Both the position numbers and the translations under genes were made by a program. This document shows positions 8,622-55,349 of a stretch of DNA of 64,000 bases, in pieces. The stretch is from assembly GCA_038062455.1 (NCBI GenBank), contig JBBTXE010000001.1, positions 58,371-122,370 on the forward strand. The letters are read 5' to 3'. The notes under the pieces are model-generated. The model worked only from the letters and a program-made list of their open reading frames with translations. It was not told the DNA's origin and ran no database searches. Within the stretch, counting starts at the first letter, position 1, and every line of letters begins with the position of its first letter. Origin of the DNA: Patescibacteria group bacterium (GTDB lineage Bacteria; Patescibacteriota; Microgenomatia; UBA12405).

Positions 8622-8652
8622 CTTGACAAAGCTTGACAAAGTATGCCATAAT
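8622..8652 (+). promoter_or_regulatory. sigma70-like promoter/operator of the TA cassette: tandem CTTGACAAAG x2, -35 TTGACA (8623-8628), 18 nt spacer, -10 CATAAT (8647-8652)
   Basis: Perfect 10-bp tandem duplication containing two TTGACA hexamers. The -10 box ends 5 nt before the ATG at 8658. Confidence 0.45.
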
Positions 8653-11419: not shown

Positions 11420-11453
11420 TAATACTTGATACTTAATACATAATACGTAATAC
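11412..11453 (+). repeat. heptanucleotide tandem array, NTRATAC units x5-6
   Basis: catacta ataatac ttgatac ttaatac ataatac gtaatac, ending 7 nt before the ftsK ATG. Confidence 0.8.
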
Positions 11454-11460
11454 TGTATAT

Positions 11461-21965: not shown

Positions 21966-22169
21966 ATGAAAAAACCAATCGTCTATATCCTAGCTGTTTT
22001 TGGTGCTGTTTTTGTCTATTATTTACTTCGGGCTGTTTGGGGAGGGTTTTCCTCTACTGCTGCTCCCAACAAAATGGTTCAAAAAGCCAAATGTGTTGCC
22101 GAATGTCGGAAAAATGCTTTAAGTGAAAATTGTGATCAATATTGCCTAGATCAGTCATTTAATCAATAG
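21966..22169 (+). CDS. small membrane-anchored protein with a twin Cx3C motif
   Basis: 67 aa. N-terminal TM helix, then CVAEC...CDQYC. Confidence 0.4.
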   Translation: MKKPIVYILAVFGAVFVYYLLRAVWGGFSSTAAPNKMVQKAKCVAECRKNALSENCDQYCLDQSFNQ

Positions 22170-23169
22170 GTTTTTTGTTCACCAACTCGTCTAATATTCT
22201 CCACCTTCTCTTCTTTTCACTCATCGGTACGTCATCCTCATATAGTTTGGCGGAAACTGTGCCTCGCCTCGGGCTATACTTATTTATATAAGCAATTTCA
22301 AATATGACCTTTTTACAGACCGAAACTGTTTTTTGAAAAGCGGCTTCGTCCTCTCCCGGAAACCCGACAATTATATCGGTTGACAATCTTACTCCCGGAA
22401 TTTTCTTTTTAATTCTTGACACCAATTTCAAATATTCCTCTTGTGTATATCCCCGTTTCATTCTTTTCAAAATTTCATCATCACCCGACTGAAAAGGCAG
22501 ATGAATTAAGCGGTCAATATTTTTATATTTGGCGATGGTGTCAATTAGCTCATCCGAAAAATCCCAGGGGTTACTACTAATAAATGAAACTTTTTTTAGA
22601 TTTTTTTGGGCCACTGCCTCCAGTAATTTTGGGAAACTGGGCTGGTAGGAATTTACATTTTGTCCAATCAATACTACTTCTTCAAAGCCCTTGTCTATCG
22701 CTTTATCCACCTCATTTAAAATTTCCTTCATGCTTCTGGATATTTCCCGACCGCGGGAGTAGGGGACTATACAATAGGAGCAATAATTGTCGCAACCGGA
22801 GCTTATTGGAACCAATGCCGCGCTTCTATTTCTCCTTAGTGGCTCTACTTCAAAACTAATGTTTTTTATCGGCAACATCTCATCTACACCCTCGATCTTC
22901 TTTTTAGCAATCGGCACCAAACACCCGGTCAAAATAATTTTGGGTTTTTTATTCGTAATTCGTAATTCGTAATTCGTAATTTTATTGATGAGTCCATATA
23001 CTCTGTTTTCTGCCGATTCCCGGACGACACAACTATTTATAACTACCACATCTGCCTCTTTCCAATCATCTACCAATTTATCACCCTTCTCCCAAAAAAA
23101 GGTTTTTATCCTCTCCGAATCAGCTTCATTCTGAACACAACCAAAAGTCTTTATATAAATTTTCGCCAT
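22159..23169 (-). CDS. MiaB/RimO-family radical SAM methylthiotransferase (no TRAM domain)
   Basis: IKTFGCVQNEADSE N-terminal domain; radical SAM CDNYCSYC. The start at the internal ATG (MAKIYIK) avoids overlap with the neighbouring gene. Confidence 0.8.
   Translation of the reverse strand: MAKIYIKTFGCVQNEADSERIKTFFWEKGDKLVDDWKEADVVVINSCVVRESAENRVYGLINKITNYELRITNKKPKIILTGCLVPIAKKKIEGVDEMLPIKNISFEVEPLRRNRSAALVPISSGCDNYCSYCIVPYSRGREISRSMKEILNEVDKAIDKGFEEVVLIGQNVNSYQPSFPKLLEAVAQKNLKKVSFISSNPWDFSDELIDTIAKYKNIDRLIHLPFQSGDDEILKRMKRGYTQEEYLKLVSRIKKKIPGVRLSTDIIVGFPGEDEAAFQKTVSVCKKVIFEIAYINKYSPRRGTVSAKLYEDDVPMSEKKRRWRILDELVNKKPID
22951..22981 (+). repeat. heptanucleotide tandem array (ATTCGTA) x4.4 inside a CDS
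   Basis: attcgtaattcgtaattcgtaattcgtaatt, read on the minus strand as ITNYELRITN within the methylthiotransferase. Confidence 0.9.
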
Positions 23170-23174
23170 TGAGC

Positions 23175-23645
23175 CTATCTTATCACCCTGACTCCACCCA
23201 ATACCAAAAACAGTGCCATCCCCATCAATATTAGTGTCGGCCAAATTGTTCCCACCGCCGGTAAAGCCTCACTACCACCCTTTTCCACTGCCTCCCAATT
23301 AACGTTACCCGCCCCAATTGTTAGGGTAAATTTTATCTCACTGCCACTATTAGTCAGTATTACGCTATGGTCGCCGTCACTTAAGACTTCTATCGGTGTA
23401 AACACCCAATCTCCGGCACTATTGGCACTTACCTGCAAAGCCGTTCCGTCAATGTCCACTATCACGTCTCCACCGGCACCCGTTTCTCCCCGAAAAGTCG
23501 GTTGACTGCCACTGTACCACCAATGACTTATTTGTTTTCCGTCAGTACTTACATTTCCAATCGATTTCAGATTAAAACCGGCCGCCAAGGCTTCGGAAAC
23601 CGTCAAAAAAAATATTGCCATTACCAATAACCAAATTTTCTTCAT
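23175..23645 (-). CDS. secreted Ig-like-fold surface protein with a C-terminal LPAVG cell-wall sorting signal
   Basis: Signal peptide MKKIWLLVMAIFFLTVSEALA. The C-terminus is LPAVG, then a hydrophobic stretch, then RVIR. Confidence 0.6.
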   Translation of the reverse strand: MKKIWLLVMAIFFLTVSEALAAGFNLKSIGNVSTDGKQISHWWYSGSQPTFRGETGAGGDVIVDIDGTALQVSANSAGDWVFTPIEVLSDGDHSVILTNSGSEIKFTLTIGAGNVNWEAVEKGGSEALPAVGTIWPTLILMGMALFLVLGGVRVIR

Positions 23646-32226: not shown

Positions 32227-32649
32227 ATGCCCACAATTAATCAATTAATCCGAAAAAAAAGAATCGTTCGTCGGGAAAAACTTAAATCGGTTGCCCTTCG
32301 GGGTAATTTCAACAGTCTTAAAAATACTCTTGTTCCTACCTACAATCCCCAGAAAAAAGGTGTTGTCACTGTTGTCAAAACCATGACTCCCAAAAAACCT
32401 CATTCGGCTCTCCGCAAAGTTGCCAAAATCCGTTTGAGTAATCACTCCACTATTACTGCCTACATTCCCGGTATTGGCCACAATCTGGCCGAACATGGCA
32501 TCGTTTCTATCCGGGCCGGCCGGGTCCGTGACCTTCCCGGTATCCGTTATCACGTTATTCGGGGCCGCTATGATGCTTCTCCGGTGGCCGGCCGTCTTCA
32601 GTCCCGCAGTAAATACGGTGTCAAACGTCCCGCCAAAGCCACTGCCTAA
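32227..32649 (+). CDS. rpsL: 30S ribosomal protein S12
   Basis: [10 protein letters not shown]...[10 protein letters not shown] signature. Confidence 0.97.
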
Positions 32650-32690
32650 CTTTATAAACTTTACAAACTTTTTAACTTTATAAACTCAAA
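32648..32690 (+). repeat. 8-9 bp tandem repeat AACTTTAY(A) x5 filling the rpsL-rpsG spacer
   Basis: aactttat a aactttac a aacttttt aactttat a aactcaaa. Confidence 0.7.
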
Positions 32691-33175: not shown

Positions 33176-33180
33176 ACTTC

Positions 33181-33960
33181 CTATAAACCTCTTGCCACTC
33201 TCCTTAAAACAACATTAGTTGTTTGTTCTGGGGTCAAAAAATGGGGAACTTGATAAGAGTCAGTATCCCTAACAAGACCTAACATGTACGGGTAAAGTGC
33301 TTTTCTAACTTCCATCGCCGACAATTCCCTTGTAGATGTAAGAAAAGAAGTGTGTAGCTCTGGCCGGTGCTTAAATAGACGAATAATATCAACTGGCCCA
33401 TCCGCTTGCATTCTGGTTATTATTTTCAACCAATAGGGGTTTTCAACATTAGCACACCAAACAGCTGGAGCAATCCGCCTATGGATCTGCAAATAATGTT
33501 CTTCGTCCGGAACATCAACTTCCTTCTCAGGCAAAAGAATCACGGCATCAACCAAACCCGACGTTGACCATAATTGTTCTCTCTGTTCAATATTAACGAT
33601 TGGCTGTCTTCCTTTTTGTCTGACAATATATGAATCTGGCTCCAGCATTAAAACAAAAGGTGTGTTTATGTCTGCCGTCAGAGCTCTAACCTCTCGCATT
33701 TCTGATACGGCCCACATATGTCCCCGGGTTCCCTCAAACCCACCCGACATTACCATCTTCCGAGCATTTTTAAAGTCACCATCAAAAATTGCACTATTCT
33801 CTTGCGCTAGACCACTATCAAACGAAAGGTTAAAAACTGGACAAGGCGGTTGGGTAAAACCCTCCCTTAGTAAAGGCAAACAATTGATGACCCAATTGGC
33901 CACCTTCCAACTCCTCCAATTTTCCCTAATATCATTCTCTACTTCATTTCTTGCGCCCAT
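33181..33960 (-). CDS. hypothetical protein with a cytidylyltransferase-like (RfaE-II/TagD-like) core and a degenerate HxGH motif
   Basis: KMVMSGGFEGTRGHMWAV...IVRQKGRQPIVNIEQREQLWSTSGLVDAVILLP parallels nucleotidyltransferase motifs GxFDxxHxGH ... R...L..L..VD.V. Confidence 0.35.
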   Translation of the reverse strand: MGARNEVENDIRENWRSWKVANWVINCLPLLREGFTQPPCPVFNLSFDSGLAQENSAIFDGDFKNARKMVMSGGFEGTRGHMWAVSEMREVRALTADINTPFVLMLEPDSYIVRQKGRQPIVNIEQREQLWSTSGLVDAVILLPEKEVDVPDEEHYLQIHRRIAPAVWCANVENPYWLKIITRMQADGPVDIIRLFKHRPELHTSFLTSTRELSAMEVRKALYPYMLGLVRDTDSYQVPHFLTPEQTTNVVLRRVARGL

Positions 33961-34004
33961 TTTTTATGAAGACAGTACAACTTAACGAACAAAGTATATC
34001 AAAA

Positions 34005-34043
34005 GCCAAAGCCAATAAAGCCTTTTCTCACATGAGGTGGTAA
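34005..34043 (+). repeat. echo of the rpsG 3' end (AKANKAFSHMRW*), non-functional fragment
   Basis: Codon-by-codon comparison with 33137-33175. The ten residues ANKAFSHMRW are identical, with six synonymous codon changes, the same stop, and a similar first few nt after the stop. Confidence 0.8.
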
Positions 34044-34056
34044 ATTTCAGGTCTCC

Positions 34057-34443
34057 TTACACATCTCCAACCACTGCTCCGAAAGTTTTCTTCTCCAGAT
34101 TCTCAATTCTATCGGTATTACTAGTTGTCTGGTGGCCGATAATCTCCCTGTATTCTCGACTCTCTTTTATCTCCAGTGCGAAAGTATCCACCGCATTCAT
34201 AATCTCTGATTTCCAATCGAGGAGTTTATTTTCAAGTTCTTTTATTCGATTTTCAACTTTCACCTCAATCAACCCTTCCAATCTCTTATTTTGTTCTTCA
34301 AGTTTTACATCCATTACCTCTCCAAGTTTCTTCTCTTGGGCCACAAGCTTGGTATCAATAAATCCGGTTAACCTTTTATCCTGAGCCTCAAGCTTGGTCT
34401 CGATCAGTTTTGAAATTTCCGAAATCAGTTTCGTATCATCCAT
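34057..34443 (-). CDS. hypothetical coiled-coil protein with four 15-aa tandem repeats
   Basis: TKLEAQDKRLTGFID / TKLVAQEKKLGEVMD / VKLEEQNKRLEGLIE / VKVENRIKELENKLL. Confidence 0.5.
   Translation of the reverse strand: MDDTKLISEISKLIETKLEAQDKRLTGFIDTKLVAQEKKLGEVMDVKLEEQNKRLEGLIEVKVENRIKELENKLLDWKSEIMNAVDTFALEIKESREYREIIGHQTTSNTDRIENLEKKTFGAVVGDV
34219..34398 (-). repeat. 45-nt in-frame tandem repeat x4 within the coiled-coil ORF
   Basis: Derived from the 15-aa periodicity of the translation (aa 16-75). Confidence 0.6.
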
Positions 34444-34447
34444 GAAA

Positions 34448-34864
34448 TTATTCTACCACTAAAATCTTTCCCGATTTTATATCCTCAAAAAACTTTTTTG
34501 TTCCCGGATATAGTGGTAAATTCAACGCTTCATCAACCGTAAACCAACCGTATTCCGAAATCTCACCACTATCAAATTTCATTTCCTGATTTTCTTTCAT
34601 TTCCACCAACCAAAACGACACGGTTTTTACCTTCGTATCCGCCGCCACTGTAACCAGTTTTTTTAACGGTACTACTTCTACCCCAATTTCTTCCTTTGTC
34701 TCCCTAATAACAGCACTTTCTTCATTTTTATCCTCCGGATTTAATCGTCCATGTGGTGGTCCCCAATGTCCATTCAATAAATCTCTCGCCTCCTTTATCA
34801 TCAAAAACTTACCATCTTTTTTTATTACCGCCACCACCCCATGACTACTAAAATCTATATCCAT
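34448..34864 (-). CDS. NUDIX hydrolase
   Basis: Nudix box GHWGPPHGRLNPEDKNEESAVIRETKEEIGVEV. Confidence 0.8.
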   Translation of the reverse strand: MDIDFSSHGVVAVIKKDGKFLMIKEARDLLNGHWGPPHGRLNPEDKNEESAVIRETKEEIGVEVVPLKKLVTVAADTKVKTVSFWLVEMKENQEMKFDSGEISEYGWFTVDEALNLPLYPGTKKFFEDIKSGKILVVE

Positions 34865-34866
34865 AG

Positions 34867-36567
34867 TTATTTTTTAAGATACGACCAAAGCAAACTAAAA
34901 TCGTTTGGTTCCAAAACAATCATTTTACAACGTTGATAGTAGGTATATCCTTCTTGTAGTTTTTTGGAGAGCGATTTCTGGCCACCATCTTTTTCATTAA
35001 AAAGAACCAACTTCTTGCCCTTGAGTAAAATATGTTCAAGGGAAATAAATTTCTTTTCTTGAAAATTAAATCGGTTTTGAAATAAACCCAAACCAAGACT
35101 TGTTGTTCCCAAAGCCGAAAAACCCACGATTTTTAGTTTTGGATTTATTTTTTTCAAATTTTCGAGAAGTTTATTTAAGTCGTCAAGGATTTTAATGTAA
35201 TAATTTTCGGTCAGAAAAAGTTTTTCCATGTGGTAGTTATGCAATGCAATTTCATTGTCTTTTTTGATGTCAAAAATATCTTTAGAACCCAAATCGGATT
35301 CAGACAATGTTCCATTCATAACTTTTTGCCAACTCGAACTTTTTAATGGCACAAATGCACAAACCCCGACAATTTTTCCACCAAACTCATAGACCATACC
35401 AAACTCCGGATTATTCGCATACCATGCTCCCATATTAGTTGGGGTAACAGGGTTTTGGGTGGGATAAACACGATTGTCAAAACCAAGTATCCGCCTATAA
35501 TCGCCTTTATCTATTGGACGGAGGTTTACTGACAACCATTGTTTTTTATTAGGGACAATCATTGGTTCGTATCCTGGACCCGTTAATGGTGTTTTGACGA
35601 TACGGAAATCAAGTTTCACCACATTTCTAGGAAATCCGCGTAAATAGTTTTCAATATTTCGGGCAAAACTTTCCTGTTTAGTCGCCGTAGCCTCTTCAGT
35701 AGTAAAACCGATTGGGAGATGAATAACGCAATTGCTAAGATGTTTGAGAACCTCTAATTGTTTCGCTTCAACCTCATCAGAATGATCAAAAATAAAGGTC
35801 ATATCATTTTTATTTAGTCTGTTAACTAATGCGTCAAAGCTTATAAGTTCCATTGGACTTGGGTTTATCAGAACCGCTCCTTTCTTTATCAAATTTATTT
35901 TCTCCCCATCTAAAAAATTTTTCGTCTCTGAGTTGAGGGAAATGTTTAGGGTAATAAAATCAGATGTTCGAATTAATTTATCTAATTCCATATACTCAAT
36001 GCCTAGATTTTTTTCTTCCGTTTCTTTTCTTCGTCTTGACCAATATCTGACATTTGCCCCAAAAGCTTTGGCAATTTCAGCGGTGCGATGCCCAATGTTA
36101 CCCAGACCAATTACCCCAAAACTTTTACCTTTTATTTCCACTCCGACAAATGTTGACCCGGAATAATTGCCCCGCCTTGCTTCATTTTTCTCCCGTTCTA
36201 TCTCCCGTATCTGATCAAAAATCCATCCAAAAGTCATCTCTACCACACCTTCGGTTGCGTAGTCTCTGACATTTGTAACTACAATCTTTTTGGAGTTACA
36301 ATACGCCAAATCTATCCCTCCGGTTCCGGTACCAAGCATCCCAATATATTTAAGATTAGGAACCATGCCAATAAACTCTTTGGTGATCTTGTCTCCGACC
36401 GGTTTTAAAAGCAGGGCATCGGCATTTTTTAGTTCAGATTGTAACTTAGGGTCATCTTTCGAGATTAAAACTTTATTTATAGTTAAAGGATCAATCCGGT
36501 GCCAATACTGTGTCCAAAGTTCAGATCCGCGATAGTTGAGAAAGACCATTTTCTTGAATTTGGTCAT
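34867..36567 (-). CDS. fusion protein: D-isomer-specific 2-hydroxyacid dehydrogenase domain plus a C-terminal GNAT-like/unknown domain
   Basis: NAD-binding GVIGLGNIGHRTAEIAKAFGANV and a downstream catalytic region in the first ~310 aa. The remaining ~250 aa has an acetyltransferase-like beta-strand pattern (GKIVGVCAFVPL). Confidence 0.6.
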   Translation of the reverse strand: MTKFKKMVFLNYRGSELWTQYWHRIDPLTINKVLISKDDPKLQSELKNADALLLKPVGDKITKEFIGMVPNLKYIGMLGTGTGGIDLAYCNSKKIVVTNVRDYATEGVVEMTFGWIFDQIREIEREKNEARRGNYSGSTFVGVEIKGKSFGVIGLGNIGHRTAEIAKAFGANVRYWSRRRKETEEKNLGIEYMELDKLIRTSDFITLNISLNSETKNFLDGEKINLIKKGAVLINPSPMELISFDALVNRLNKNDMTFIFDHSDEVEAKQLEVLKHLSNCVIHLPIGFTTEEATATKQESFARNIENYLRGFPRNVVKLDFRIVKTPLTGPGYEPMIVPNKKQWLSVNLRPIDKGDYRRILGFDNRVYPTQNPVTPTNMGAWYANNPEFGMVYEFGGKIVGVCAFVPLKSSSWQKVMNGTLSESDLGSKDIFDIKKDNEIALHNYHMEKLFLTENYYIKILDDLNKLLENLKKINPKLKIVGFSALGTTSLGLGLFQNRFNFQEKKFISLEHILLKGKKLVLFNEKDGGQKSLSKKLQEGYTYYQRCKMIVLEPNDFSLLWSYLKK

Positions 36568-36623
36568 ATTAGGAATTATATAACTTTTTGAATCTTGAGT
36601 TTTCTTTATGCTATCCTTATTTA

Positions 36624-37931
36624 ATGTCTCTATTTGGTGGTCACCGGGTGGTTATTTGGCCCAAGGCCAAAACGCTTGATATCTATCTTTCCCGATCAGA
36701 TGACAATATCCTCTCTTTTGACATCAATCTCTGGCAAGCCTTAGCCGATACCGAAATCACCCGTCTCTCTCAATTTTTAAAAAGTAACCATTTTACCTCC
36801 GCCACCGTTTTAATCGAGGACAACGTTGTTTTTACCAAATCCTTTATTTACGATCAGGCCGTCACCTCCCTTGACCCAAGAGAAGTTGTGGCTTTAGCCA
36901 AAGATATGGTTTCTTTTGACATCGACCTCAGCTCGGTCACCTTCGAGCTTGTTCCCAAAGGCGACAAAACCCTGGTCCAAACCCGGATATTTAATCAAAA
37001 AAAATTAGCCCCACTTCTGAAAAATCTGTCCCTTCTTAACTTAAAACTAAAATACTCTGCCGTTTCCGAAAGCTTGGCCAAAATTTTCTCCCGCTTTTAC
37101 CAAAAACCCTTTTTTGTCTTTTATCCTTTGGCAGATGATTCTGAATACATCGCCGCCCTTTGTGCTAAAGACAAGGTCTATTTTACCTCTCCTATCAAAA
37201 AGGCTCTTCCCGAAGTCAAAAAGATAATCAATTATTCCAAATCTTATTTTAGTACCCAAATTTCCAAAGTTTTTCTTCCTGAAAGTATTGCTGCCAACCT
37301 CGATCTGCCCGATGTTGACAAAACTACCTATGTCGAATCCCAAGTTAACATCGATATAAATTTACCCAGTAACCTCCCTCTGCCGGTAGCTGGTATAATA
37401 GGAGTACCTATGGAAAACAAAAAAAACATCCTTCCAATTATTGCTGTTTTTCTCTTCACCGCCATTATCGCCGCCGTTATTGTTTGGGTGGTTTTAACCC
37501 AGAGCAATAAAAGCAGTGATGTTACCAATCCTTCCGCCGATTTAATTACCCCCGTTTCCTCAATCGATCTTTCCCCGACTCCGGCAGTAACAGTCGTCAT
37601 GCCGTCTAAAGCTCTAAAGTTCCAAGTGCTGAATGCTACTGATATCAGCGGTCAGGCTGCCACCATCAAGGCCGAATTAGTTAAACTGGGTTTTAGTAGT
37701 GTCACTGTCGGTAATTCCCAGGGGGCAGTTACCGGCAACGAAATTCAGTTAAAATCAGCCCTATCAACCAGTTCTGCTTATTTTAAGTCCAAAATAGCCG
37801 GATTTGCTGATGCTGCTGTCGGTGAGTTAAAAACCAATTCTACTTATGATGTTATTTTCATTATCGGTGTTGACTTAAAAACCGGTCAACCTTCGGCTAC
37901 CGCCACTCCCCAATTAACCCCCGCCCAATGA
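36624..37931 (+). CDS. membrane protein with a LytR_C (LytR/CpsA/Psr C-terminal) domain
   Basis: TM helix ILPIIAVFLFTAIIAAVIVWVVL. C-terminal KFQVLNATDISGQAATIKAELVKLGF...VIFIIGVD. ATG at 36624 chosen; a TTG at 36588 is possible. Confidence 0.55.
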   Translation: MSLFGGHRVVIWPKAKTLDIYLSRSDDNILSFDINLWQALADTEITRLSQFLKSNHFTSATVLIEDNVVFTKSFIYDQAVTSLDPREVVALAKDMVSFDIDLSSVTFELVPKGDKTLVQTRIFNQKKLAPLLKNLSLLNLKLKYSAVSESLAKIFSRFYQKPFFVFYPLADDSEYIAALCAKDKVYFTSPIKKALPEVKKIINYSKSYFSTQISKVFLPESIAANLDLPDVDKTTYVESQVNIDINLPSNLPLPVAGIIGVPMENKKNILPIIAVFLFTAIIAAVIVWVVLTQSNKSSDVTNPSADLITPVSSIDLSPTPAVTVVMPSKALKFQVLNATDISGQAATIKAELVKLGFSSVTVGNSQGAVTGNEIQLKSALSTSSAYFKSKIAGFADAAVGELKTNSTYDVIFIIGVDLKTGQPSATATPQLTPAQ

Positions 37932-38944
37932 AGATACTAGTCACCGGCGGTTCCGGCTTTATCGGATCCAATTTTGTCCGTTTTTGGCTTTCCCGGCATC
38001 CCGACGACGAAGTTTCCAATCTCGATAAACTCACTTATGCCGCCAATCCCCAAAGCCTTAGCGATGTTGCCGCCAATCCTCACTATCACTTTGTCCGGGG
38101 CGATATTTGTGATCCCCTGGCAGTTGACAATTTTGTCTCTTCGGGTATTGAATTAATTGTCCATTTTGCCGCCGAATCTCACGTTGATCGTTCGTTGGAT
38201 GACCCGGAGGCTTTTCTTAAAACCAATATTTTTGGCACCCATCTTCTCCTTGAAGCCGCCAAAAAATATCAAATTCGTTTTCACCACATCTCCACCGATG
38301 AAGTTTACGGTGCTCTCCCCCTCAATTCACCGGTCAAATTTAGCGAAACCACTCCCTATGATCCCCGCTCTCCCTATTCGGCCTCCAAAGCCGCTTCTGA
38401 TCATTTTGTTATGGCCTATTATCATTCTTTCGGATTATCGGTAACCATCACCAATTGTTCCAACAATTACGGCCCGTATCAGTCCCCGGAAAAATTTATT
38501 CCCCGAATGATCACCAATTTAATTGACGGTCAAAAAATTCCTATTTATGGCGATGGCCTCTATGTCCGCGATTGGCTCTATGTCGCCGACCACTGTAGTG
38601 CAATTGAGGCAGTGATTCAAAAAGGGGAAATCGGTCAAACTTACAATGTCGGCGGCTTAGTCAAAGATGTTCCCAACATCGAGATTGCCCAAACTATTTT
38701 AAAATTAATGTCCAAAGATGAATCCAGTGTTGAACACGTTCCTGACCGTCCCGGTCACGACCGCCGCTATTCGGTTGATTGGTCCAAAATAAATTCCAAA
38801 CTTGGCTGGCAGCCATCACTCACTTTCGAAGAGGGGATTGCGGCCACGATTTCATGGTATCAGGACAATGAATCATGGTGGCGGCCGATGAAAACCGAAG
38901 CCGAAGAATTTTACCGCCATCTGGCCGCCTCTCGAAAAAAATAA
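37928..38944 (+). CDS. rfbB: dTDP-glucose 4,6-dehydratase
   Basis: MKILVTGGSGFIGSNF, YSASKAASD catalytic YxxxK, and the family-typical C-terminus. Confidence 0.93.
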   Translation: MKILVTGGSGFIGSNFVRFWLSRHPDDEVSNLDKLTYAANPQSLSDVAANPHYHFVRGDICDPLAVDNFVSSGIELIVHFAAESHVDRSLDDPEAFLKTNIFGTHLLLEAAKKYQIRFHHISTDEVYGALPLNSPVKFSETTPYDPRSPYSASKAASDHFVMAYYHSFGLSVTITNCSNNYGPYQSPEKFIPRMITNLIDGQKIPIYGDGLYVRDWLYVADHCSAIEAVIQKGEIGQTYNVGGLVKDVPNIEIAQTILKLMSKDESSVEHVPDRPGHDRRYSVDWSKINSKLGWQPSLTFEEGIAATISWYQDNESWWRPMKTEAEEFYRHLAASRKK

Positions 38945-38965
38945 AATCTGCTACAATCTTTCTGT

Positions 38966-39526
38966 ATGATGAAATTTACTCCTCTATCTTTGTCGGGATT
39001 AATGTTAATCGAACCCCAAGTCTTTGGTGACGACCGCGGTTTTTTTATGGAAACATATTCCAAAAAAGAATTCACCCAAAACGGTATTAATATCGATTTT
39101 GTTCAGGATAATCATTCCCGGTCCGGCAATGGTGTTCTCCGTGGCCTTCACTTCCAAAAACCCCCTTTTGCCCAGGCCAAATTAATTCGGGTAAGCATGG
39201 GTGAAGTTCTCGATGTGGCAGTCGACATCCGCCCCGATTCTTCCACCTTTGGCAAATGGGATTCAGCCCATCTTTCAGCCGAAAATAAAAAAATGCTTTT
39301 TATTCCAGTCGGTTTTGCCCATGGTTTTTATTGTCTGACTGAAATTGTTGATTTCCAATACAAATGCAGCTCTTTCTATGATAAAGAGTCCGAAAGCGGT
39401 TTTTTATGGAACGACCCCGATGTCAATGTTGGTTGGTTGGCAGCGTCTCCTGTTCTCTCCGAAAAAGATAAATTACTGCCTTCCTTCAAATCCCAAATCA
39501 AGGATCTCAAAAAACTTGTCTGGTAA
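38966..39526 (+). CDS. rfbC: dTDP-4-dehydrorhamnose 3,5-epimerase
   Basis: FGDDRGFFMETY...VLRGLHFQ..P.AQAKL.RV..G...DVAVDIR signature. Confidence 0.92.
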   Translation: MMKFTPLSLSGLMLIEPQVFGDDRGFFMETYSKKEFTQNGINIDFVQDNHSRSGNGVLRGLHFQKPPFAQAKLIRVSMGEVLDVAVDIRPDSSTFGKWDSAHLSAENKKMLFIPVGFAHGFYCLTEIVDFQYKCSSFYDKESESGFLWNDPDVNVGWLAASPVLSEKDKLLPSFKSQIKDLKKLVW

Positions 39527-39535
39527 TTTTTATAA

Positions 39536-39570
39536 ATTATACGTAATACTTGATACTTAATACTTAATAC
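39536..39570 (+). repeat. heptanucleotide tandem array, NTRATAC units x5
   Basis: attatac gtaatac ttgatac ttaatac ttaatac, ending 5 nt before the rfbD ATG. Confidence 0.8.
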
Positions 39571-39575
39571 GTCTT

Positions 39576-40454
39576 ATGAAAATCATCGCCACCGGTATCA
39601 CCGGCTTAGTTGGTTCCCGAATTTCAGAGCTTAACCCCGATCTTTCTTTTGCCGATATTTCCATTGAATCCGGCATCAGTATTCTGGATCCAGTGGCTTT
39701 AGAAAAAGTATTTACTAACAACCCCGACGCTGTCACCGTTTTACATTTAGCCGCCTTTACTGATGTTAATGGGGCTTGGTCACAAAATAAAGACCAAAAT
39801 GGTTTATGTTTCCAGTTAAATGTCACCGGTACTCAAAATATTGTCAATCTATGTAAAAAATATGGTAAATATTTAATTCACATTTCTACCGATTATGTTT
39901 TTGACGGCACCAAGGAAGGAAAATATTTAGAAACCGATACCTCCAGTCCGATCGAATGGTATGGTGAAACCAAATATTTAGCTGAAAAAGTCGTCCTCGA
40001 TTCCGGCATCAAAGCCGCCATCCTTCGTCTGGCTTTTCCTTATCGCGCCTCTTTCGAGCCCAAAAAAGATATTGTCCGAAAATTAATTGACGGTTTTAAG
40101 GTCGGCAAACTTTATCCCCAATGGACCGATCATTTTACCTCACCCACCTTTATTGATGATATCGCTGTCGCTGTCCGTAAATTTATCGACAACCAATACA
40201 CCGGTATCTACCATTGTTGCGGCTCTTCCGCCCAGTCACCCTTTGATATGTGTCAATTAATTGCCGAAGTTTTTGGGTTTGATAAATCGTTAATTGTCGC
40301 CTCAACTTTGGCTGAATTTCTTACCACCCAGGCTCCTGGTTCCCGCCCTTGGCAAAAAAATCTCTCCCTCGATAATTCTAAAATTACCGCTCTGGGTATC
40401 AAAATGAAAACTCTCCGCGAAGGCCTTGAAGAGATGAAACGTCAGCTTTCTTAG
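39576..40454 (+). CDS. rfbD: dTDP-4-dehydrorhamnose reductase
   Basis: Rossmann N-terminus GITGLVGS, HISTDYVFDG, YGETKYLAE catalytic motif. Confidence 0.85.
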   Translation: MKIIATGITGLVGSRISELNPDLSFADISIESGISILDPVALEKVFTNNPDAVTVLHLAAFTDVNGAWSQNKDQNGLCFQLNVTGTQNIVNLCKKYGKYLIHISTDYVFDGTKEGKYLETDTSSPIEWYGETKYLAEKVVLDSGIKAAILRLAFPYRASFEPKKDIVRKLIDGFKVGKLYPQWTDHFTSPTFIDDIAVAVRKFIDNQYTGIYHCCGSSAQSPFDMCQLIAEVFGFDKSLIVASTLAEFLTTQAPGSRPWQKNLSLDNSKITALGIKMKTLREGLEEMKRQLS

Positions 40455-41634
40455 CCACCTTCTCCCCCTCCCGCACCCCAAAGTTAATCCCCCTATCTTC
40501 CGGATAAATATTGGCAAAATTCACGTTGATAATTTTTCCGGCTGTTTTTTGATAATTGATAATTGAGTGTTGATAATTGGCATCAACGATATGTTGCGCA
40601 TATTTAAATTTGAAAATATTTTTCTCTGAAATTTGTTTTTTATCAAAATCGGGTAAAATCTTTTTCAAATAATCAAAAAACTCCTGCCAAATTATTTTGT
40701 CATCAACTTTAAAATATCTATGGTTTTGAGGAAGATAGGTGCCAAGATAATAGACTTGTTTTTCTTGGTACTGAGTACTTGGTACTAAGTTCGTGTGTTG
40801 AATCATCGCCACGAAAGGGGATTTGGGATCAGTAATATTATGCCAATAAAATTTACTCAAATTTTGAGTTGATGAAAACACTGCCGTTATTGCCCCCAAA
40901 TAATCAACATTTAGTAACGCTTCCGAACTGATCACTGTATCGTAATTCGTAATTCGTAATTCGTAATTCGTAATTTTTGTATTTAGCTTTATTTCTCCCC
41001 CCAACTTCTTAATTCTCTTTTTCAGTTCTTTGATTATTTGCCCAAATCCCCCCATTAAATAACCCAATTTTTCACCACCTTTTTCGCTCGAATTGGCTCG
41101 GGTGTGAATTCGGGCCCAGAGCCAGGCCATCGAAATATCCTGATATCGATTGGCAAATTTTCCTTTTAATAACGGCTCCCAAATAATTTCATAGGCTCTT
41201 TCTCCACACCACTTTTTCATCCATTGATAGGCTAAAACATTTTCAAACTTCTGCCACTTTTTTTCTTTTTCCAAATAAATCTTTACTAAACCCAAACGAA
41301 CTTTGTCAAAAATATTTAACGGCTTAAAATGCAGTAAATCTATTGCCCCATTAAATGGCCACATTTTTTTACCAAAATATATCGCCGTTGATCCGTTAAA
41401 CCATTTTAATTTTGACGATAGTCCCAAGTCTTCAATTAATTCGATAATATATTTATCGGTTTTAAAAATATGATGATAGGCTTTCTCCAAACCCTTCCCC
41501 TCAATTTTAAAAGACCCCAAAAGTCCGCCCAATTCCTTTTCTTTTTCAAAAATCGTCACCTCGTGTCCCGCTTGTAATAATCGATACCCTGCCACCAATC
41601 CGGTTATTCCGGCTCCGATAATTGCTACCTTCAT
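40399..41634 (-). CDS. FAD/NAD(P)-binding oxidoreductase (amine oxidase/protoporphyrinogen-oxidase-like)
   Basis: MKVAIIGAGITGLVAGYRL...IFEKEKELGG dinucleotide-binding motif. Its 3' end overlaps rfbD convergently by 56 nt. Confidence 0.7.
   Translation of the reverse strand: MKVAIIGAGITGLVAGYRLLQAGHEVTIFEKEKELGGLLGSFKIEGKGLEKAYHHIFKTDKYIIELIEDLGLSSKLKWFNGSTAIYFGKKMWPFNGAIDLLHFKPLNIFDKVRLGLVKIYLEKEKKWQKFENVLAYQWMKKWCGERAYEIIWEPLLKGKFANRYQDISMAWLWARIHTRANSSEKGGEKLGYLMGGFGQIIKELKKRIKKLGGEIKLNTKITNYELRITNYDTVISSEALLNVDYLGAITAVFSSTQNLSKFYWHNITDPKSPFVAMIQHTNLVPSTQYQEKQVYYLGTYLPQNHRYFKVDDKIIWQEFFDYLKKILPDFDKKQISEKNIFKFKYAQHIVDANYQHSIINYQKTAGKIINVNFANIYPEDRGINFGVREGEKVAKKADVSSLQGLRGEFSF
40938..40975 (+). 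repeat. heptanucleotide tandem array (ATTCGTA) x4 perfect, plus degenerate/partial units, inside a CDS
   Basis: tatcgta attcgta attcgta attcgta attcgta att, read on the minus strand as KITNYELRITNYD. Confidence 0.9.
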
Positions 41635-41655
41635 TGTGCTAAAATTTTATCATTT

Positions 41656-42429
41656 ATGAAACTCACTGTTTTAGGTTGTGGTTCTTTCTTCGTTAGTGCT
41701 AATCAAACCGCCTCGGCCTTTCTGCTAGAAACCGCCGGAAAGAAGATATTGATTGATTGTGGTCCCGGCACTCTGGTTCGTCTTTCAGAACAGAAAGTAA
41801 AACTTGAGGACATCGATTATGTTTTTCTCACCCACTTCCACCCCGATCATTCCTCCGACTTGTTCCCCCTATTCATGAATTATAAATTGACTGATTTTTT
41901 TACTCCGGGCACTTTGACCAAATTTCCTGAATTCTTTGGCCCCGAAGGTTTTGATAAATTTTTTCTTGATTATTCTCACTTATGTCAATTACACAGTTAT
42001 GAAAACTGGAAAAAAATTAAACTTAATGACCATCAACCGGAAATTAAATTAGGTAATATCACTGTTAAAACCTTTAAAGTTGATCACAATGCTTTTGGTA
42101 TATTTGCCAAGGCCTATGCTCTTCGTTTCGAGGCCGAGGGTAAAACCATTGTCTTTTCCGGGGATAGTGCCATTTGCCCCGGTATCAGGCAAGCTTGTCA
42201 AGGAGCCGATCTTTTTGTTTGTGATACATCCTATCCTAAGGGTAAAAGCGCTCCTTCCCATATGGATACTATAGATATTGGTAATATTTGCCAGGCAGGT
42301 AAAGTCAAAAAAGTAGTGTTAACCCACTTTTATCCTCAGTTTGCTGATAGCGATTTTGTTTCTGAAATAAAAGAAAACTTTAATGGTGAAGTTGAAAGCT
42401 GCCACGACGGCCTGAAATTAGAATTTTAG
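41656..42429 (+). CDS. MBL-fold metallo-hydrolase (RNase Z-like)
   Basis: LTHFHPDHSSDL metal-binding motif; 257 aa. Confidence 0.7.
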   Translation: MKLTVLGCGSFFVSANQTASAFLLETAGKKILIDCGPGTLVRLSEQKVKLEDIDYVFLTHFHPDHSSDLFPLFMNYKLTDFFTPGTLTKFPEFFGPEGFDKFFLDYSHLCQLHSYENWKKIKLNDHQPEIKLGNITVKTFKVDHNAFGIFAKAYALRFEAEGKTIVFSGDSAICPGIRQACQGADLFVCDTSYPKGKSAPSHMDTIDIGNICQAGKVKKVVLTHFYPQFADSDFVSEIKENFNGEVESCHDGLKLEF

Positions 42430-42511
42430 GTCGGGCATTGTAAATTTATTTTCCCATTGCTATGATACTATGTTTATACTTCAGCTTTAATTATTATAAT
42501 AATTTATCTAA

Positions 42512-42546
42512 AAAATACGTAATACTTAATACGTAATACTTGATAC
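42512..42546 (+). repeat. heptanucleotide tandem array, NTRATAC units x5
   Basis: aaaatac gtaatac ttaatac gtaatac ttgatac, ending 9 nt before the fusA ATG. Confidence 0.8.
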
Positions 42547-42555
42547 TATTTTTAT

Positions 42556-44667
42556 ATGCCCGATGCGATTCAAGTCACCAAAAACCGGATTGTAACCATG
42601 GACAAGGTCCGAAACATCGGTATTATTGCCCATATAGACGGCGGCAAAACTACCACCACCGAACGTCTCCTTTTCTATACCGGCAAAATTCACAAAATCG
42701 GTTCCGTCGATGAAGGTACTACTACCACCGATTCCATGATTCAGGAGCGGGAGCGGGGGATTACTATCCAGTCTGCCTGTATCACTACCTTTTGGAAACA
42801 ATACCGTATTAACATTATTGACACTCCCGGCCATGTTGACTTTACTGCCGAGGTTGAACGTTCTCTTCGGGTGTTGGATGGCGCCATTATGATTTTTGAC
42901 GGTAACGCCGGTGTTCAGGCCCAATCCGAAACCGTTTGGCGCCAAGCCGACAAATATGGAGTTCCCAGAATTGCCTTTGTCAATAAAATGGACAAAATCG
43001 GTGCCTCTTTTACCAAAACCCTAGACTCCATCACCCAAAAACTCCGAGCTCCGATTGTGCCGGTAGTTATCCCGGTCGGTGAAGAGCATGCCCATATCGG
43101 AGTCATCGACCTAATGGAAATGAAAATGATTGTTTACGACAAAGATCCCGAGGGTATGGAATTCAGTGTCAAAGAAATTTCTCCGGAATATGCCAAAACG
43201 GCGAAAATTGCCCGGGCCCACATGGTCGAAAAAATTTCCGGTGTGAATGATTTGTTGATGGAGAAATTTCTAAATAACCAGGATATTTCTGTTCTCGAAC
43301 TTAAATCCGCTCTCCGTCAAGCCACTATTGCCCGCAAACTCTTTCCGGTTTTTTGTGGCGCCGCTTGGCGTAACAAAGGTATTCATCCGATTCTTGACGC
43401 TATTATTGACTATTTACCATCTCCTGTCGATTTGCCCCCAATCGAAGGTTTTGATGTCAACGGTGGTGACAAAATCACCCGAAAACCGGAAAACAATGAT
43501 CCTTTTTCCGGTCTCTTATTTAAAGTCCAATCCGATCCCCACGTTGGCACTCTATCTTATGTCCGGGTTTATTCCGGCGTGGTCAAATCCGGCTCTGAAG
43601 TCTATAACTCTACCCGCCAAAAAAGTGAACGTATCGGCCGCCTATTATTAATGCATGCCGACAAAAGGGAGGGGATTGAGGAAGGTTTTGCCGGAGAAAT
43701 TATTGCTTGTATTGGCCTCAAAGAATCCTACACCGGCGACACTCTCTGCGACAAATTTGCCCCCATTTCCCTGTCTCCGATTCAATTTCCCGATCCGGTA
43801 ATCTCACTTTCTATCGAACCGGAAACAACCGATGATCAGGAAAAAATGAGTCAAGCCCTCAACCGGCTGAGTCAGGAAGATCCCACTTTTAAAGTTTCCT
43901 ACAATCAGGAAACCGGTCAATCAATTATTGCCGGTATGGGTGAACTGTATCTGGAAATTATCGTTGACCGTCTCAAGCGTGAATTTGGCGTCAATGTTAA
44001 AACCGGTGTCCCCCAAGTGGCCTACCGGGAAACTATTTCGGCTCACGCCGAAGGCGAGGGAAAATATATCCATCAGTCCGGCGGTCATGGTCAATATGGC
44101 CACTGTAAAATCAAAGTCGAACCCAAAAACCGCGGTGAAGGGATTGAATTTGTCAATGCTATCAAAGGTGGAGCCATTCCCGGCAACTTTATTCCGGCTA
44201 TTGAAAAAGGAGTCCGGGAAACTTTAACTAAGGGAATTATTGCCGGTTATCCGGCAACCGATATTAAAGTTACCGTCTTTGATGGTTCCTACCATGATGT
44301 TGACTCTTCGGAACAGGCCTTTAAATTAGCCGGGTCCTACGCCATCAAAGACGCCTTTATTTTAGCCAGCCCCATAGTTCTCGAGCCCATCATGAAAATG
44401 GAGGTAGCCACTCCCTCCGACTTTTTAGGCACTGTTATCGGCGATCTTTCTTCCCGACGCGGTCAAATTGGCGGTACTACCGATTCTTTTGGTTTCACCA
44501 TCGTCAATGTCACTATTCCTCTAGAAGCTGTTCGCGGCTACGCCACCGTCATTCGGTCACTCACTCAAGGCCGCGGTTCTTTTTACATGGAACCCAGCCA
44601 CTACGATCCCGTCCCCCGCGATATCCAGGAAAAACTGACCATCAAAACTTCTGACAAAAAAGAATAA
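42556..44667 (+). CDS. fusA: translation elongation factor G
   Basis: 703 aa. AHIDGGKTTTTE, DTPGHVDF, NKMD GTPase motifs and domains II-V. Confidence 0.97.
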   Translation: MPDAIQVTKNRIVTMDKVRNIGIIAHIDGGKTTTTERLLFYTGKIHKIGSVDEGTTTTDSMIQERERGITIQSACITTFWKQYRINIIDTPGHVDFTAEVERSLRVLDGAIMIFDGNAGVQAQSETVWRQADKYGVPRIAFVNKMDKIGASFTKTLDSITQKLRAPIVPVVIPVGEEHAHIGVIDLMEMKMIVYDKDPEGMEFSVKEISPEYAKTAKIARAHMVEKISGVNDLLMEKFLNNQDISVLELKSALRQATIARKLFPVFCGAAWRNKGIHPILDAIIDYLPSPVDLPPIEGFDVNGGDKITRKPENNDPFSGLLFKVQSDPHVGTLSYVRVYSGVVKSGSEVYNSTRQKSERIGRLLLMHADKREGIEEGFAGEIIACIGLKESYTGDTLCDKFAPISLSPIQFPDPVISLSIEPETTDDQEKMSQALNRLSQEDPTFKVSYNQETGQSIIAGMGELYLEIIVDRLKREFGVNVKTGVPQVAYRETISAHAEGEGKYIHQSGGHGQYGHCKIKVEPKNRGEGIEFVNAIKGGAIPGNFIPAIEKGVRETLTKGIIAGYPATDIKVTVFDGSYHDVDSSEQAFKLAGSYAIKDAFILASPIVLEPIMKMEVATPSDFLGTVIGDLSSRRGQIGGTTDSFGFTIVNVTIPLEAVRGYATVIRSLTQGRGSFYMEPSHYDPVPRDIQEKLTIKTSDKKE

Positions 44668-44675
44668 AATGTTCT

Positions 44676-45278
44676 GTGGTCGTTGACGATCCTTTTCGTT
44701 TTGCTGATAAATTTGCCGTCAAATCATCCCGTTTACCAAATTGGGACTACTCATCTCCCGGAATATATTTCAATACTATTTGCACTCTCAATCACAATAA
44801 TTTCTTTGGAAAAATTGTTGATAATAAAATGGTTTTGTCGACTTGCGGTCAGATTGCTCGCGATGAATTAATTAAAACAATTCAAATTCGAAACAATATT
44901 TCCATCGACCTGTGGGTAATAATGCCCAACCATATTCATCTGTTAATCACCATTTATGATTGTCATGTAGAGACGCCCCGCGGGGCGTCTCTACGAATAA
45001 ACCCCACGTCTCTACAGCAAAATAAAGTGATAACCATATCTCAAGAAAAACGCGAGTTGTTTCAGAGGTTAAATACCAAATCAAATCAAATAGTCCCGAA
45101 AATGATTAATCAATTTAAATCACGTGTCACTCTGGTTTGCAGACAAAACAATTTCTTTTTCGCCTGGCAATCTCGTTTTTATGATGAAATCATCAAAGAC
45201 AATCAACGGTTTATGGTAGTTAAACACTATATTCAAAACAATATTGCTAACTGGAACAAAGATAAATTCTATCGATAA
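44676..45278 (+). CDS. IS200/IS605-like HUH Y1 transposase, REP-associated (RayT-like)
   Basis: HUH motif PNHIHLL and the catalytic Tyr region WQSRFYDEII. Flanked by, and interrupted in-frame by, 28-bp palindromes. The GTG start is uncertain. Confidence 0.7.
   Translation: MVVDDPFRFADKFAVKSSRLPNWDYSSPGIYFNTICTLNHNNFFGKIVDNKMVLSTCGQIARDELIKTIQIRNNISIDLWVIMPNHIHLLITIYDCHVETPRGASLRINPTSLQQNKVITISQEKRELFQRLNTKSNQIVPKMINQFKSRVTLVCRQNNFFFAWQSRFYDEIIKDNQRFMVVKHYIQNNIANWNKDKFYR
44967..44994. repeat. REP-like perfect 28-bp palindrome GTAGAGACGCCCCGCGGGGCGTCTCTAC (inside the RayT-like ORF)
   Basis: Self-complementary. Translated as VETPRGASL. The next ~22 nt resemble the sequence following the 45285 copy. 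Confidence 0.9.
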
Positions 45279-46699: not shown

Positions 46700-46798
46700 G
46701 AATAATTTAAAAAATAAATTAATAATTAATAATTTAAAAAAATAAGTTCGATTTCTTTAGACATTAGAAATTAGGATTTAGAAATTTTTTGTATTAGT

Positions 46799-49327: not shown

Positions 49328-49338
49328 TCTATCAATTA

Positions 49339-49373
49339 ATTCGTAATTCGTAATTCGTAATTGATAATTAATT
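49339..49373 (+). repeat. heptanucleotide tandem array: ATTCGTA x3, ATTGATA, ATTAATT
   Basis: Ends 4 nt before the rpsS ATG. Shares a 23-nt stretch (attcgtaattcgtaattgataatta) with the 53477 array. Confidence 0.85.
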
Positions 49374-53442: not shown

Positions 53443-53476
53443 TAAATAGTTTATTTTTTAAAAAATAAAAAATTAA

Positions 53477-53511
53477 ATTCGTAATTCGTAATTGATAATT
53501 AATAATTAATA
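53477..53511 (+). repeat. heptanucleotide tandem array: ATTCGTA x2, ATTGATA, ATTAATA x2
   Basis: Ends 3 nt before the rplF ATG. Confidence 0.85.
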
Positions 53512-54412: not shown

Positions 54413-54889
54413 ATGGACAACAATCAATACAATAAACGAGCCTCTTTTGAAAGGTTCCAGAAGCCTGTTAGTGAGTTTACTGAAAAAGTAGTTCAAATCA
54501 AACGCGTTTCCAAAAAAACTAAAGGCGGCAATCAGATTGCTTTTACTGCCCTGGTGGTTTCCGGTGACAAAAAATCCCGTGTCGGTGTCGGTCACGGTCG
54601 GGCCAAAAGTGTGGCTGACGCCATTCAGAAAGCCATTAAACGAGCCCAAAAATCAATGTACACCGTTCCTATTGTTGACGGCACAATTTCCAATTCCCTC
54701 AAATTAAAATTCAAAGGTGCTATCATTTTAATCCGCCCGGGCAAAAAAGGAAGCGGCCTTATCGCCGGCGGTCCGGTCCGATCAGTTGTTGAACTGGCTG
54801 GAATTAAAGATATTGTCAGTAAAATCATCGGCTCCCGAAACAAATCAGTTAATGTTTGGGCTACCTTTCGGGCTCTCAAAATGCTCTAA
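54413..54889 (+). CDS. rpsE: 30S ribosomal protein S5
   Basis: VVQIKRVSKKTKGG...GVGHGRAK...PGKKGSGLIAGGPVR. Confidence 0.95.
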   Translation: MDNNQYNKRASFERFQKPVSEFTEKVVQIKRVSKKTKGGNQIAFTALVVSGDKKSRVGVGHGRAKSVADAIQKAIKRAQKSMYTVPIVDGTISNSLKLKFKGAIILIRPGKKGSGLIAGGPVRSVVELAGIKDIVSKIIGSRNKSVNVWATFRALKML

Positions 54890-54893
54890 ATTC

Positions 54894-55349
54894 ATGAAAA
54901 TTTTAAGCCAACTTAAACCAATTGTTTCCAAAGCCGCCAAACGGGTTGGCCGGGGTATCGGTTCTGGTGTTGGCGGTCACACCACCGGCCGGGGTGCCAA
55001 AGGCGACAAGGTTCGGGGGAAAACCAAATTAACTTTTGACGGTACCAAAATAAAAAAATCCTGGATAAAGCGCCTCCCTTTCCTTCGCGGCAAACATCGT
55101 ACCTTGGCCTTAAATAAATTTCAAACCCTAACCCTTACCCAAATTGACAAAGTTTACCAATCGGGTGACACCATCAATCTCAAAAATATTTTTGAGAAAT
55201 TCCCTCAACTTAATACCCGGATGTATAAATTAGGGGTCAAAATATTGTCCACCGGCGAAATTACCAAAACTTTCACTTTTCAAAAAATAAAATTGACAAA
55301 ATCCGCTGCCGGGAAAGTTATCACTGCCGGTGGTAAGATAGAAGAGTAA
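54894..55349 (+). CDS. rplO: 50S ribosomal protein L15
   Basis: Internal ATG 4 nt after the rpsE stop; KRVGRGIGSGVGGHTTGRGAKG motif. Confidence 0.93.
   Translation: MKILSQLKPIVSKAAKRVGRGIGSGVGGHTTGRGAKGDKVRGKTKLTFDGTKIKKSWIKRLPFLRGKHRTLALNKFQTLTLTQIDKVYQSGDTINLKNIFEKFPQLNTRMYKLGVKILSTGEITKTFTFQKIKLTKSAAGKVITAGGKIEE

Follow-up and report, generated by a model that had tools for sequence, protein, structure and literature searches.

The STRR heptanucleotide sequences of heterocystous cyanobacteria were reportedly described by Mazel et al. in 1990, and we know of no STRR array that abuts a start codon. A/U-rich enhancers and standby sites, such as bS1-dependent leaders and the epsilon element of T7 gene 10 (UUAACUUUA), act independently of a Shine-Dalgarno (SD) site, and the ribbon-helix-helix repressor omega of pSM19035 binds DNA heptads of the type WATCACW. 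A study of the ctx promoter describes its heptad repeats (10.1101/2021.05.14.444153), and the 7-bp repeats of Haemophilus are a published example of phase variation (PMC12721329). The best match in anatomy is the TAACTGA heptamer, which forms intergenic direct repeats in marine Beggiatoaceae, some Cyanobacteria and Bacteroidetes (MacGregor 2015, PMC4679880). There are 169 sets of it in a genome of ~5330 genes, and a role in translation via S1 or a cold-shock protein was proposed in the same article without experiment. This text is concerned with a similar array of five heptamers that stands directly in front of fusA, the gene for elongation factor EF-G, in 64,000 nucleotides of DNA from Patescibacteria group bacterium (assembly GCA_038062455.1, contig JBBTXE010000001.1, positions 58,371 to 122,370 of the forward strand). 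This whole stretch is called the window, and all positions are counted from its first letter. No prior report of such arrays in Patescibacteria, or in the Candidate Phyla Radiation (CPR), was found in the literature searched. What might such a repeat be doing in front of an essential gene?

The fusA array belongs to a class of tandem-repeat cassettes, with units of 7-9 nt, that are dispersed in Shapirobacteria and other Microgenomates. The most likely of the readings considered here, which we put forward tentatively, is that it would be a transcribed, G-poor leader or spacer without an SD site, serving as a ribosome landing region.

The heptamer array in front of fusA

The array, its gene and two sister arrays are laid out as follows.

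42512..42546, + strand: fusA array, five heptamers [A/G/T]T[A/G]ATAC (from the sequence, Tandem Repeats Finder and pattern search)
42556..44667, + strand: fusA (EF-G), without a Shine-Dalgarno site; all EF-G Pfam domains are present in the open reading frame (ORF)
11420..11454, + strand: TAATAC-type array filling the 41-nt proS-ftsK spacer, 6 nt before the ftsK ATG at 11461
39537..39570, + strand: TAATAC-type array in the 49-nt rfbC-rfbD spacer, 5 nt before the rfbD ATG at 39576

The five units on the + strand read aaaatac gtaatac ttaatac gtaatac ttgatac, exactly as claimed in the initial annotation of this DNA, and they are followed by tatttttat, so that the array ends 9 nt before the ATG. 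Tandem Repeats Finder reports a period of 7 (4.9 copies, 85% matches) and also one of 14 (94% matches). The two-unit pattern TAATACNTAATAC, searched with at most one mismatch, matches 13 times in the window, every time on the + strand, against 0.29 on average and at most 2 in dinucleotide shuffles; these arrays are non-random. The sister arrays that had been announced before ftsK and rfbD are indeed present. Throughout the three arrays the ATAC core is constant (15/15 units) and changes occur only at positions 1, 2 and 7; TTGATAC occurs once per array, never in the same place.

The initial annotation had also placed these units one base away from the ATTCGTA repeats found elsewhere in the window. 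The kinship holds for units whose variable base is G (GTAATAC against GTAATTC) and fails for the others. No array in the window mixes the TAATAC and ATTCGTA types; mixed arrays were seen in one unrelated metagenome contig (L156). The broader proposal that the two types form a single class stands, given their identical placement and an AATTCGT-type array at the orthologous fusA site of locus L041, the closest relative. Upstream of fusA, positions 42536-42552 contain no GGAG, GAGG or AGGA. A known structured RNA leader was ruled out as the identity of the array, an Rfam scan of the whole window having returned no match at the gathering threshold.

A class of repeats that abut start codons

The placement of such repeats was analysed in 797 kb of DNA, made up of 43 Microgenomates loci and the window, with tandem repeats counted from 3 copies upward. 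The dominant periods are 7 (29 arrays) and 8 (16 arrays). Of the 35 arrays that lie between genes, 26 have their last base -3 to 13 nt ahead of the ATG of an ORF, a position reached by 8.9% of random 30-nt segments in non-coding DNA (binomial p ~1e-20); the arrays are thus gene-proximal, as had been claimed, and the start-proximal ones lie in sense orientation relative to their gene. The statement on placement rests on this distance to the ATG compared with random placement, and not on a test of position within the spacer, which, taken unconditionally, put 13/19 arrays nearer the start (p = 0.17) on a crude ORF map with at least 3 known miscalls.

In the window as a whole, arrays of 3.3-5.1 copies occupy 11 sites. 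Seven of them are start-proximal, with gaps of 3-12 nt to the ATG, and five of these seven lie in within-cluster junctions without a consensus promoter (proS-ftsK, rpsL-rpsG, rfbC-rfbD, rplB-rpsS and rpsH-rplF). Three further arrays were found in the 6.7 kb to the left of the window in the same genome (L211), whose density is at least 10 start-proximal arrays per ~71 kb. Unit types in the class include ATAC-core units, AATTCGT, TTAGAAA, ACTTTATA and ACTTTATAA.

Most of the nearest relatives of this EF-G (74-91% identity) bear the label of Candidatus Shapirobacteria or of other Microgenomates, members of the CPR. This lineage seldom uses Shine-Dalgarno sites: SD-like matches of at least 4 nt to AGGAGGT precede 7/56 window genes and 17% of clade ORFs, compared with 63% in Firmicutes control loci. 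No such match was found upstream of the array-bearing genes of the window, and none of the seven SD-matched genes carries an array. High expression is to be expected of EF-G and of the ribosomal proteins S7, S19, L6 and S10, so efficient initiation is still needed at their genes despite the missing SD site.

Composition sets the arrays apart as well. On the sense strand they hold 40% A, 42% T, 13% C and 5% G, against 15% G and 16% C in non-array start-proximal DNA, and C exceeds G in 19 arrays while G exceeds C in 7. Since this depletion of G is specific to the sense strand and runs across unit families, it points to RNA and not to duplex DNA. Regions from -45 to +15 that contain an array also fold more weakly, with a median of -4.4 kcal/mol against -5.95 (p = 4e-4) and -5.35 (p = 0.012).

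The remaining start-proximal arrays of the window, and the three outside it, are these.

49337..49369, + strand: TAATTCG array with a GATAATT tail at the rplB-rpsS junction, 8 nt before the rpsS ATG at 49378
53476..53511, + strand: AATTCGT array with a GATAATT/AATAATT tail, 3 nt before the rplF ATG at 53515
46757..46786, + strand: TTAGAAA array, 12 nt before the rpsJ ATG at 46799 and 3' of the tuf terminator hairpin
32648..32686, + strand: AACTTTATA cassette (period 9) filling the rpsL-rpsG spacer, 6 nt before the rpsG ATG at 32693
L211 1043-1076: AAAATTG array between grpE and dnaK
L211 4642-4677: AATTGAT array ending 2 nt before nusA, directly after a terminator hairpin
L211 5788-5817: TTGAAAA array spanning the infB start

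Locus L046 (15.7 kb), from a metagenome-assembled genome, has ~20 period-7 arrays and, three times, a composite of ATAACAC and TGTTCCA ~20 nt apart. Separately, no L30 gene lies between rpsE and rplO, either in the window (54413-55349) or in L213 (3339-4275), which we take to be the known ribosomal-protein gap of CPR bacteria.

Exchange and copying of the cassettes

At the orthologous position upstream of fusA, relatives carry arrays of other families. AATTCGT arrays stand against the ATG in L041, L002, L008 and L025, CTATTAA or ACTAATT arrays in L005, L006 and L019, TCTAAAGC arrays in L010-L013 and an AATTACT array in L023. Copy number does not vary: the fusA, amine-oxidase and rpsJ arrays have the same number of units in six other assemblies, from different samples, that encode an identical EF-G, so the copy-number polymorphism proposed as a check gave no variation, and the only differences in those assemblies are homopolymer deletions in L081 and L082 (~2.4x coverage).

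The cassettes also recur between genes. AATTCGT arrays at different genes of different genomes have a common polar tail (…AATTCGTAATTGATAATT…), and the ACTTTATA cassette, with the order of its variant units kept, precedes S7 in the window, S12 in L011 and L16 in L008 and L018, and also S19. These genes are non-orthologous, and the ribosomal proteins of the genomes concerned are only 62-72% identical. The sites of this cassette are given below, with those of three arrays that lie inside genes.

32648-32686 of the window; L011 3580-3625 and 4049-4099; L008 17616-17649 and 19060-19078; L018 17435-17460: ACTTTATA cassette
22951..22981, + strand: ATTCGTA array within a minus-strand MiaB-like ORF (22159-23244), reverse translation KITNYELRITN
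40940..40975, + strand: ATTCGTA array within a minus-strand amine-oxidase ORF (40399-41634), translation KITNYELRITNY
40549..40579, + strand: TTGATAA array within the same amine-oxidase ORF; no stops in the orientation of the ORF

The perfect ATTCGTA arrays of the two unrelated minus-strand ORFs both yield KITNYELRITN; in reverse orientation ATTCGTA has no stop codon in any frame, and its forward units contain TAA. In L041 the amine-oxidase ortholog has, at the position of the array, non-repeat sequence of similar length, from which it follows that the array replaced coding DNA. A search for (NYELRIT)n returned 130 short ORFs, whose named sources include Nostocales, Tannerella and a WWE3 bacterium. 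Two spacers hold several families in a row: one in Tolypothrix (L208 1440-1690) has an STRR1-like GGGGA(C/T)T array, AATTACG x9 and CCCATGC x3, and one in WWE3 (L207 1320-1625) has GTAATTC x5, GTAACTG x3 and TTTACGC x~25. A metagenome scan for TAATACNTAATACNTAATAC met mixed organisms, and 22 of 131 TAATAC arrays preceded an ORF; with organisms so heterogeneous and so few arrays before ORFs, the scan is not a clean test.

One more array of the window, TTAAGTYAC (period 9, 4.4 copies, 19489-19528), lies inside the minus-strand ORF 19316-19855, which has a weak, below-threshold match to a protein family of 23S rRNA intervening sequences.

A proposed landing region for ribosomes

The reading that we favour would run as follows. 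The fusA array would be transcribed as the last ~45 nt of the 5' leader, and the ftsK, rfbD, rpsG, rpsS and rplF arrays as intercistronic spacers. The resulting RNA, A/U-rich, nearly free of G and weakly folded, would offer the 30S subunit a landing region independent of an SD site. A possible mediator is a single-strand-binding OB-fold protein, either bS1 or a cold-shock-domain protein, with ~7 nt covered per domain. The location of the fusA array 3' of conserved promoter-like motifs, described below, was counted toward a role at the RNA level. What the sequences show directly, and what speaks for the reading, is the placement, orientation and composition of the arrays, their weak folding, the missing SD sites, the constant ATAC core, the preserved unit order of the ACTTTATA cassette and the recurrence across genes and genomes.

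Several observations weigh against this reading. Array transcription, ribosome recruitment and the action of any factor in trans are steps that we infer, and no candidate array-binding protein was identified. A selfish or neutral repeat under purifying selection could also show this placement and this depletion of G. Folding z-scores of the arrays against dinucleotide shuffles are ~0, so the weak folding follows from the low G content alone; only this effect of composition is significant, and the idea that the repeat architecture lowers RNA structure any further was ruled out. Stop codons in all three frames are about as frequent on the forward strand (20/29 arrays) as on the reverse (18/29), which ruled them out as a selected forward-strand feature. 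The same repeat families sit inside ORFs, in the MiaB-like and amine-oxidase genes, and the AATTACG array of Tolypothrix runs the other way round, with ~100 nt between it and the next gene. Lastly, most relatives have spacers of 1-10 nt at rpsL-rpsG, rplB-rpsS, rpsH-rplF and tuf-rpsJ: the arrays are dispensable at orthologous junctions and their occurrence is sporadic.

The reading can be carried further, into a generalisation that we regard as doubtful. Start-abutting repeats of 7-9 nt would be a portable substitute for the SD site, spread by copy and paste between genes, recurring in SD-poor phyla (CPR, Cyanobacteria, Bacteroidetes, Beggiatoaceae) and read by a dedicated OB-fold protein that binds with one domain per ~7-nt unit and hands the mRNA to the ribosome. 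If true, such repeats would be a new class of ribosome-recruitment element.

Promoter-like sequences and other explanations

Three promoter-like sequences lie in or near the fusA array.

42541..42549, + strand: TGaTACTAT, extended -10-like, formed by the last unit plus TAT, 6 nt before the fusA ATG
42458..42466, + strand: TGcTATGAT, upstream extended -10-like motif; relatives have TGnTATCAT / TGCTATGAT
42473..42500, + strand: TTTATA-16-TATAAT promoter-like site, 10/12 matches, just 5' of the array (TATAAT at 42495-42500)

In relatives, the TGnTATCAT / TGCTATGAT motif is conserved ~90-100 nt upstream of the fusA ATG. In seven of the loci (L003, L012, L013, L017, L018, L026 and L029), a hairpin rich in G+C and a T-run come no more than ~15 nt after TGnTATCAT, ~60-100 nt before fusA; this hairpin, which is not present in the window, could be an attenuator or a 5' stabiliser.

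The motif TGnTAnnnT shows a peak 5-8 nt before the ATG, where 27 of the 222 clade genes with a spacer of 40 nt or longer have it, and is almost absent at other distances; judged from sequence, this pattern suggests that leaderless mRNAs are widespread in this CPR clade. The TACTAT of the fusA array falls among the hexamers found at this peak, such as TACCAT, TATACT and TAACAT. In the window, TGnTAnnnT ends 5-8 nt before several other starts, for example 9664(-), 9998, 14787, 38966 and 41634(-)/41656. An exact 10-bp direct repeat, CTTGACAAAG x2 at 8622-8641, supplies a TTGACA, and a downstream CATAAT ends 5 nt before the ATG at 8658. The ftsK array can be read as TTGATA-17-AATACT-6-ATG and the nusA array of the same genome as TTGATA-17-GAAAAT-7-ATG; no promoter-like site was found in the rfbD array. 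Because 6+17 = 23 = 2 mod 7, units of the TTGATAA/TTGAAAA type form self-phased -35/-10 pairs. Across 31 start-proximal clade arrays, -35/-10-like sites number 4 against 5.6 in shuffles, and correctly placed ones 2 against 1.15; a correctly placed TGnTAnnnT occurs in 1/29 arrays, that of fusA only, and TAnAAT in none.

The initial annotation had seen in the array a series of phased -10 candidates. A -10 hexamer needs a T as its last base, which TAATAC does not have, and the array is therefore no row of phased -10 boxes; what survives of the proposal is the last unit, whose extended -10, properly spaced at 6 nt, could additionally fire a leaderless mRNA. The promoter-like readings at fusA, ftsK and nusA, together with the self-phased units, make a promoter contribution in this genome possible. 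That the heptamers at large are core promoter elements for leaderless or near-leaderless mRNAs, with TGaTACTAT serving fusA, and with the TTGATAC unit as the -35 and AATACT from a later unit as the -10 of ftsK, is nevertheless unlikely, if well worth considering. The sharp clade peak with the fusA motif inside it speaks for this explanation, as do the 17-nt spacing in the ftsK and nusA arrays, the position of the latter directly after a terminator hairpin, and the presence of TTGA(T/A)A in several arrays of this genome. It has to contend with the missing last T, the siteless rfbD array and the lack of enrichment in the clade; moreover, many arrays lie within conserved ribosomal protein operons, and stronger, conserved promoter motifs exist upstream of the fusA array (42458-42466 and 42473-42500). 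The other main rival, again rather improbable, is that the arrays are selfish or neutral cassettes of the STRR type, spread by copy and paste or by slippage and kept without function where they do no harm, in SD-less leaders and spacers or, reversed, in permissive protein loops. Their sporadic presence at orthologous junctions fits this well, and so do the swap of unit families at fusA (TAATAC here, AATTCGT in four relatives, others elsewhere), the replacement of coding sequence in two unrelated ORFs, the identical cassettes at non-orthologous sites, the AATTACG family of Nostocales, Tannerella and WWE3, at times far from starts, and the small share of metagenome TAATAC arrays that precede an ORF. 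A repeat without function would, however, hardly keep a distance to the ATG as tight as 2-13 nt even where 50-110 nt of spacer are free, nor a sense orientation throughout, with all TAATAC matches on the + strand, nor invariant core positions within its units. Essential, highly expressed genes would bear SD-less spacers of 40-70 nt only if these support initiation, and no mobilising enzyme or terminal structure was found for the arrays.

An operator at the DNA level, at which a heptad-binding regulator would co-regulate fusA, ftsK and rfbD after the models of omega of pSM19035 or of ToxR/H-NS at ctxAB, is very unlikely. Four to five contiguous 7-bp units with an invariant core of four bases and variable edges do resemble an array of binding sites, and the three TAATAC arrays precede three different genes; but one small genome contains many unrelated unit families, each of which would need its own regulator, the positions are intercistronic and without promoters, and the sense-strand depletion of G across families points to RNA. 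No gene for a ribbon-helix-helix protein or other candidate was found near the arrays among the 20 window ORFs scanned. Already disfavoured by the observations, and highly improbable, is a contingency locus in which slippage alters the copy number and so switches or tunes expression by phase variation. Short tandem repeats next to promoters or starts are the classical substrate of this process, but the copy number here is identical in six other assemblies apart from homopolymer errors, the target genes are housekeeping genes and the units are imperfect.

The split str operon

The array had further been taken to mark the distal boundary of an island inserted in the str operon, which it does not. 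The separation of rpsG and fusA (33176-42555 in the window) measures 9.4 kb here and 3.3-9.7 kb in all Shapirobacteria-like loci (L001-L043 compared); it shrinks to 28-138 nt only in Microgenomates that are less closely related. It follows that the operon was split long ago and that the whole clade shares the split, while the content of the gap varies. The sequence agrees with L041 again from 42436 on, ~75 nt before the array, so that the conserved block begins upstream of it.

Between fusA and tuf, a 200-aa ORF (44676-45278, + strand) has a partial match to an IS200-like Y1 transposase (PF01797, 26.7 bits, residues 63-93). L041 is without this ORF at that position, and also without the MBL-fold gene at 41656-42429. 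The ORF was considered as a mobiliser of the arrays and set aside, no connection to them having been found. What looked like a 550-nt insertion in fusA of relatives proved to be an artefact, to which the G domain of the neighbouring tuf had given rise.

Comparison with known systems

The arrays are a kind of element already described but unexplained, met here in a CPR lineage with a tiny genome. They bear on the open problem of how ribosomes are recruited to internal cistrons in bacteria that make little use of SD sites, and on why heptamers of the STRR and TAACTGA kind accumulate in some phyla. They also offer compact natural variants, namely junctions with and without arrays, swaps of unit family and essential targets (EF-G, S7, S19, L6 and FtsK). 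The organism was also met in assemblies ERZ1292616 and ERZ1292620 and in runs ERR3858110 and ERR3858112. Combined with metatranscriptomes of Hainich groundwater, from the same site, which may exist, these variants could tell a role of the repeats in translation from one in transcription, or from none.

Like the heptad operators, that is, the omega sites of pSM19035 and the TTTTGAT repeats of Vibrio cholerae ctxAB, the arrays are made of contiguous 7-bp units upstream of genes. They differ from these in unit sequence, in their intercistronic positions, in the depletion of G on the sense strand and in having no known cognate protein. The resemblance to extended -10 leaderless promoters is confined to fusA, where TGaTACTAT at 6 nt has the geometry of 30 other TGnTAnnnT sites in the clade; even there only the 3'-most unit contributes, and the four other units, like most other arrays, are without the motif. 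The rpsG cassette includes the exact string TTAACTTTA, identical to the T7 epsilon enhancer; none of the loci analysed contains rRNA. Epsilon and the other A/U-rich enhancers are single copies, as opposed to the tandem arrays found here.

STRR sequences are, like the present repeats, dispersed families of tandem heptamers in non-coding DNA, and the AATTACG/ATTCGTA family of the window is present in Nostocales, including the Tolypothrix spacer that also has an STRR1-like array. The STRR arrays are nonetheless often longer and richer in G and C, their hosts are cyanobacterial, and the units found here are not those of STRR1-3.

With TAACTGA, the differences lie mostly in the unit and in the host. 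TAATACN, AATTCGT, TTAGAAA, ACTTTATA and others take the place of TAACTGA, and a GTAACTG array was seen only in the WWE3 contig; several families share one genome, periods of 8 and 9 occur too, the repeats live in a small CPR genome that has many putative leaderless promoters, and the density of arrays is above that of TAACTGA. In anatomy the two agree closely. TAACTGA sets consist of 2-6 tandem heptamers (PMC4679880), a range comparable with the 3.3-5.1 copies counted here, and the 'split' sets with related heptamers are a further likeness. Both kinds of repeat stand in forward orientation a few nucleotides before starts that usually miss an SD site, both are found before fusA and inside ribosomal protein operons, and in both the forward copies contain stop codons while reverse copies are translated within ORFs. 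Counted as a precedent, this match in anatomy supports the reading of the fusA array as a possible ribosome landing region.

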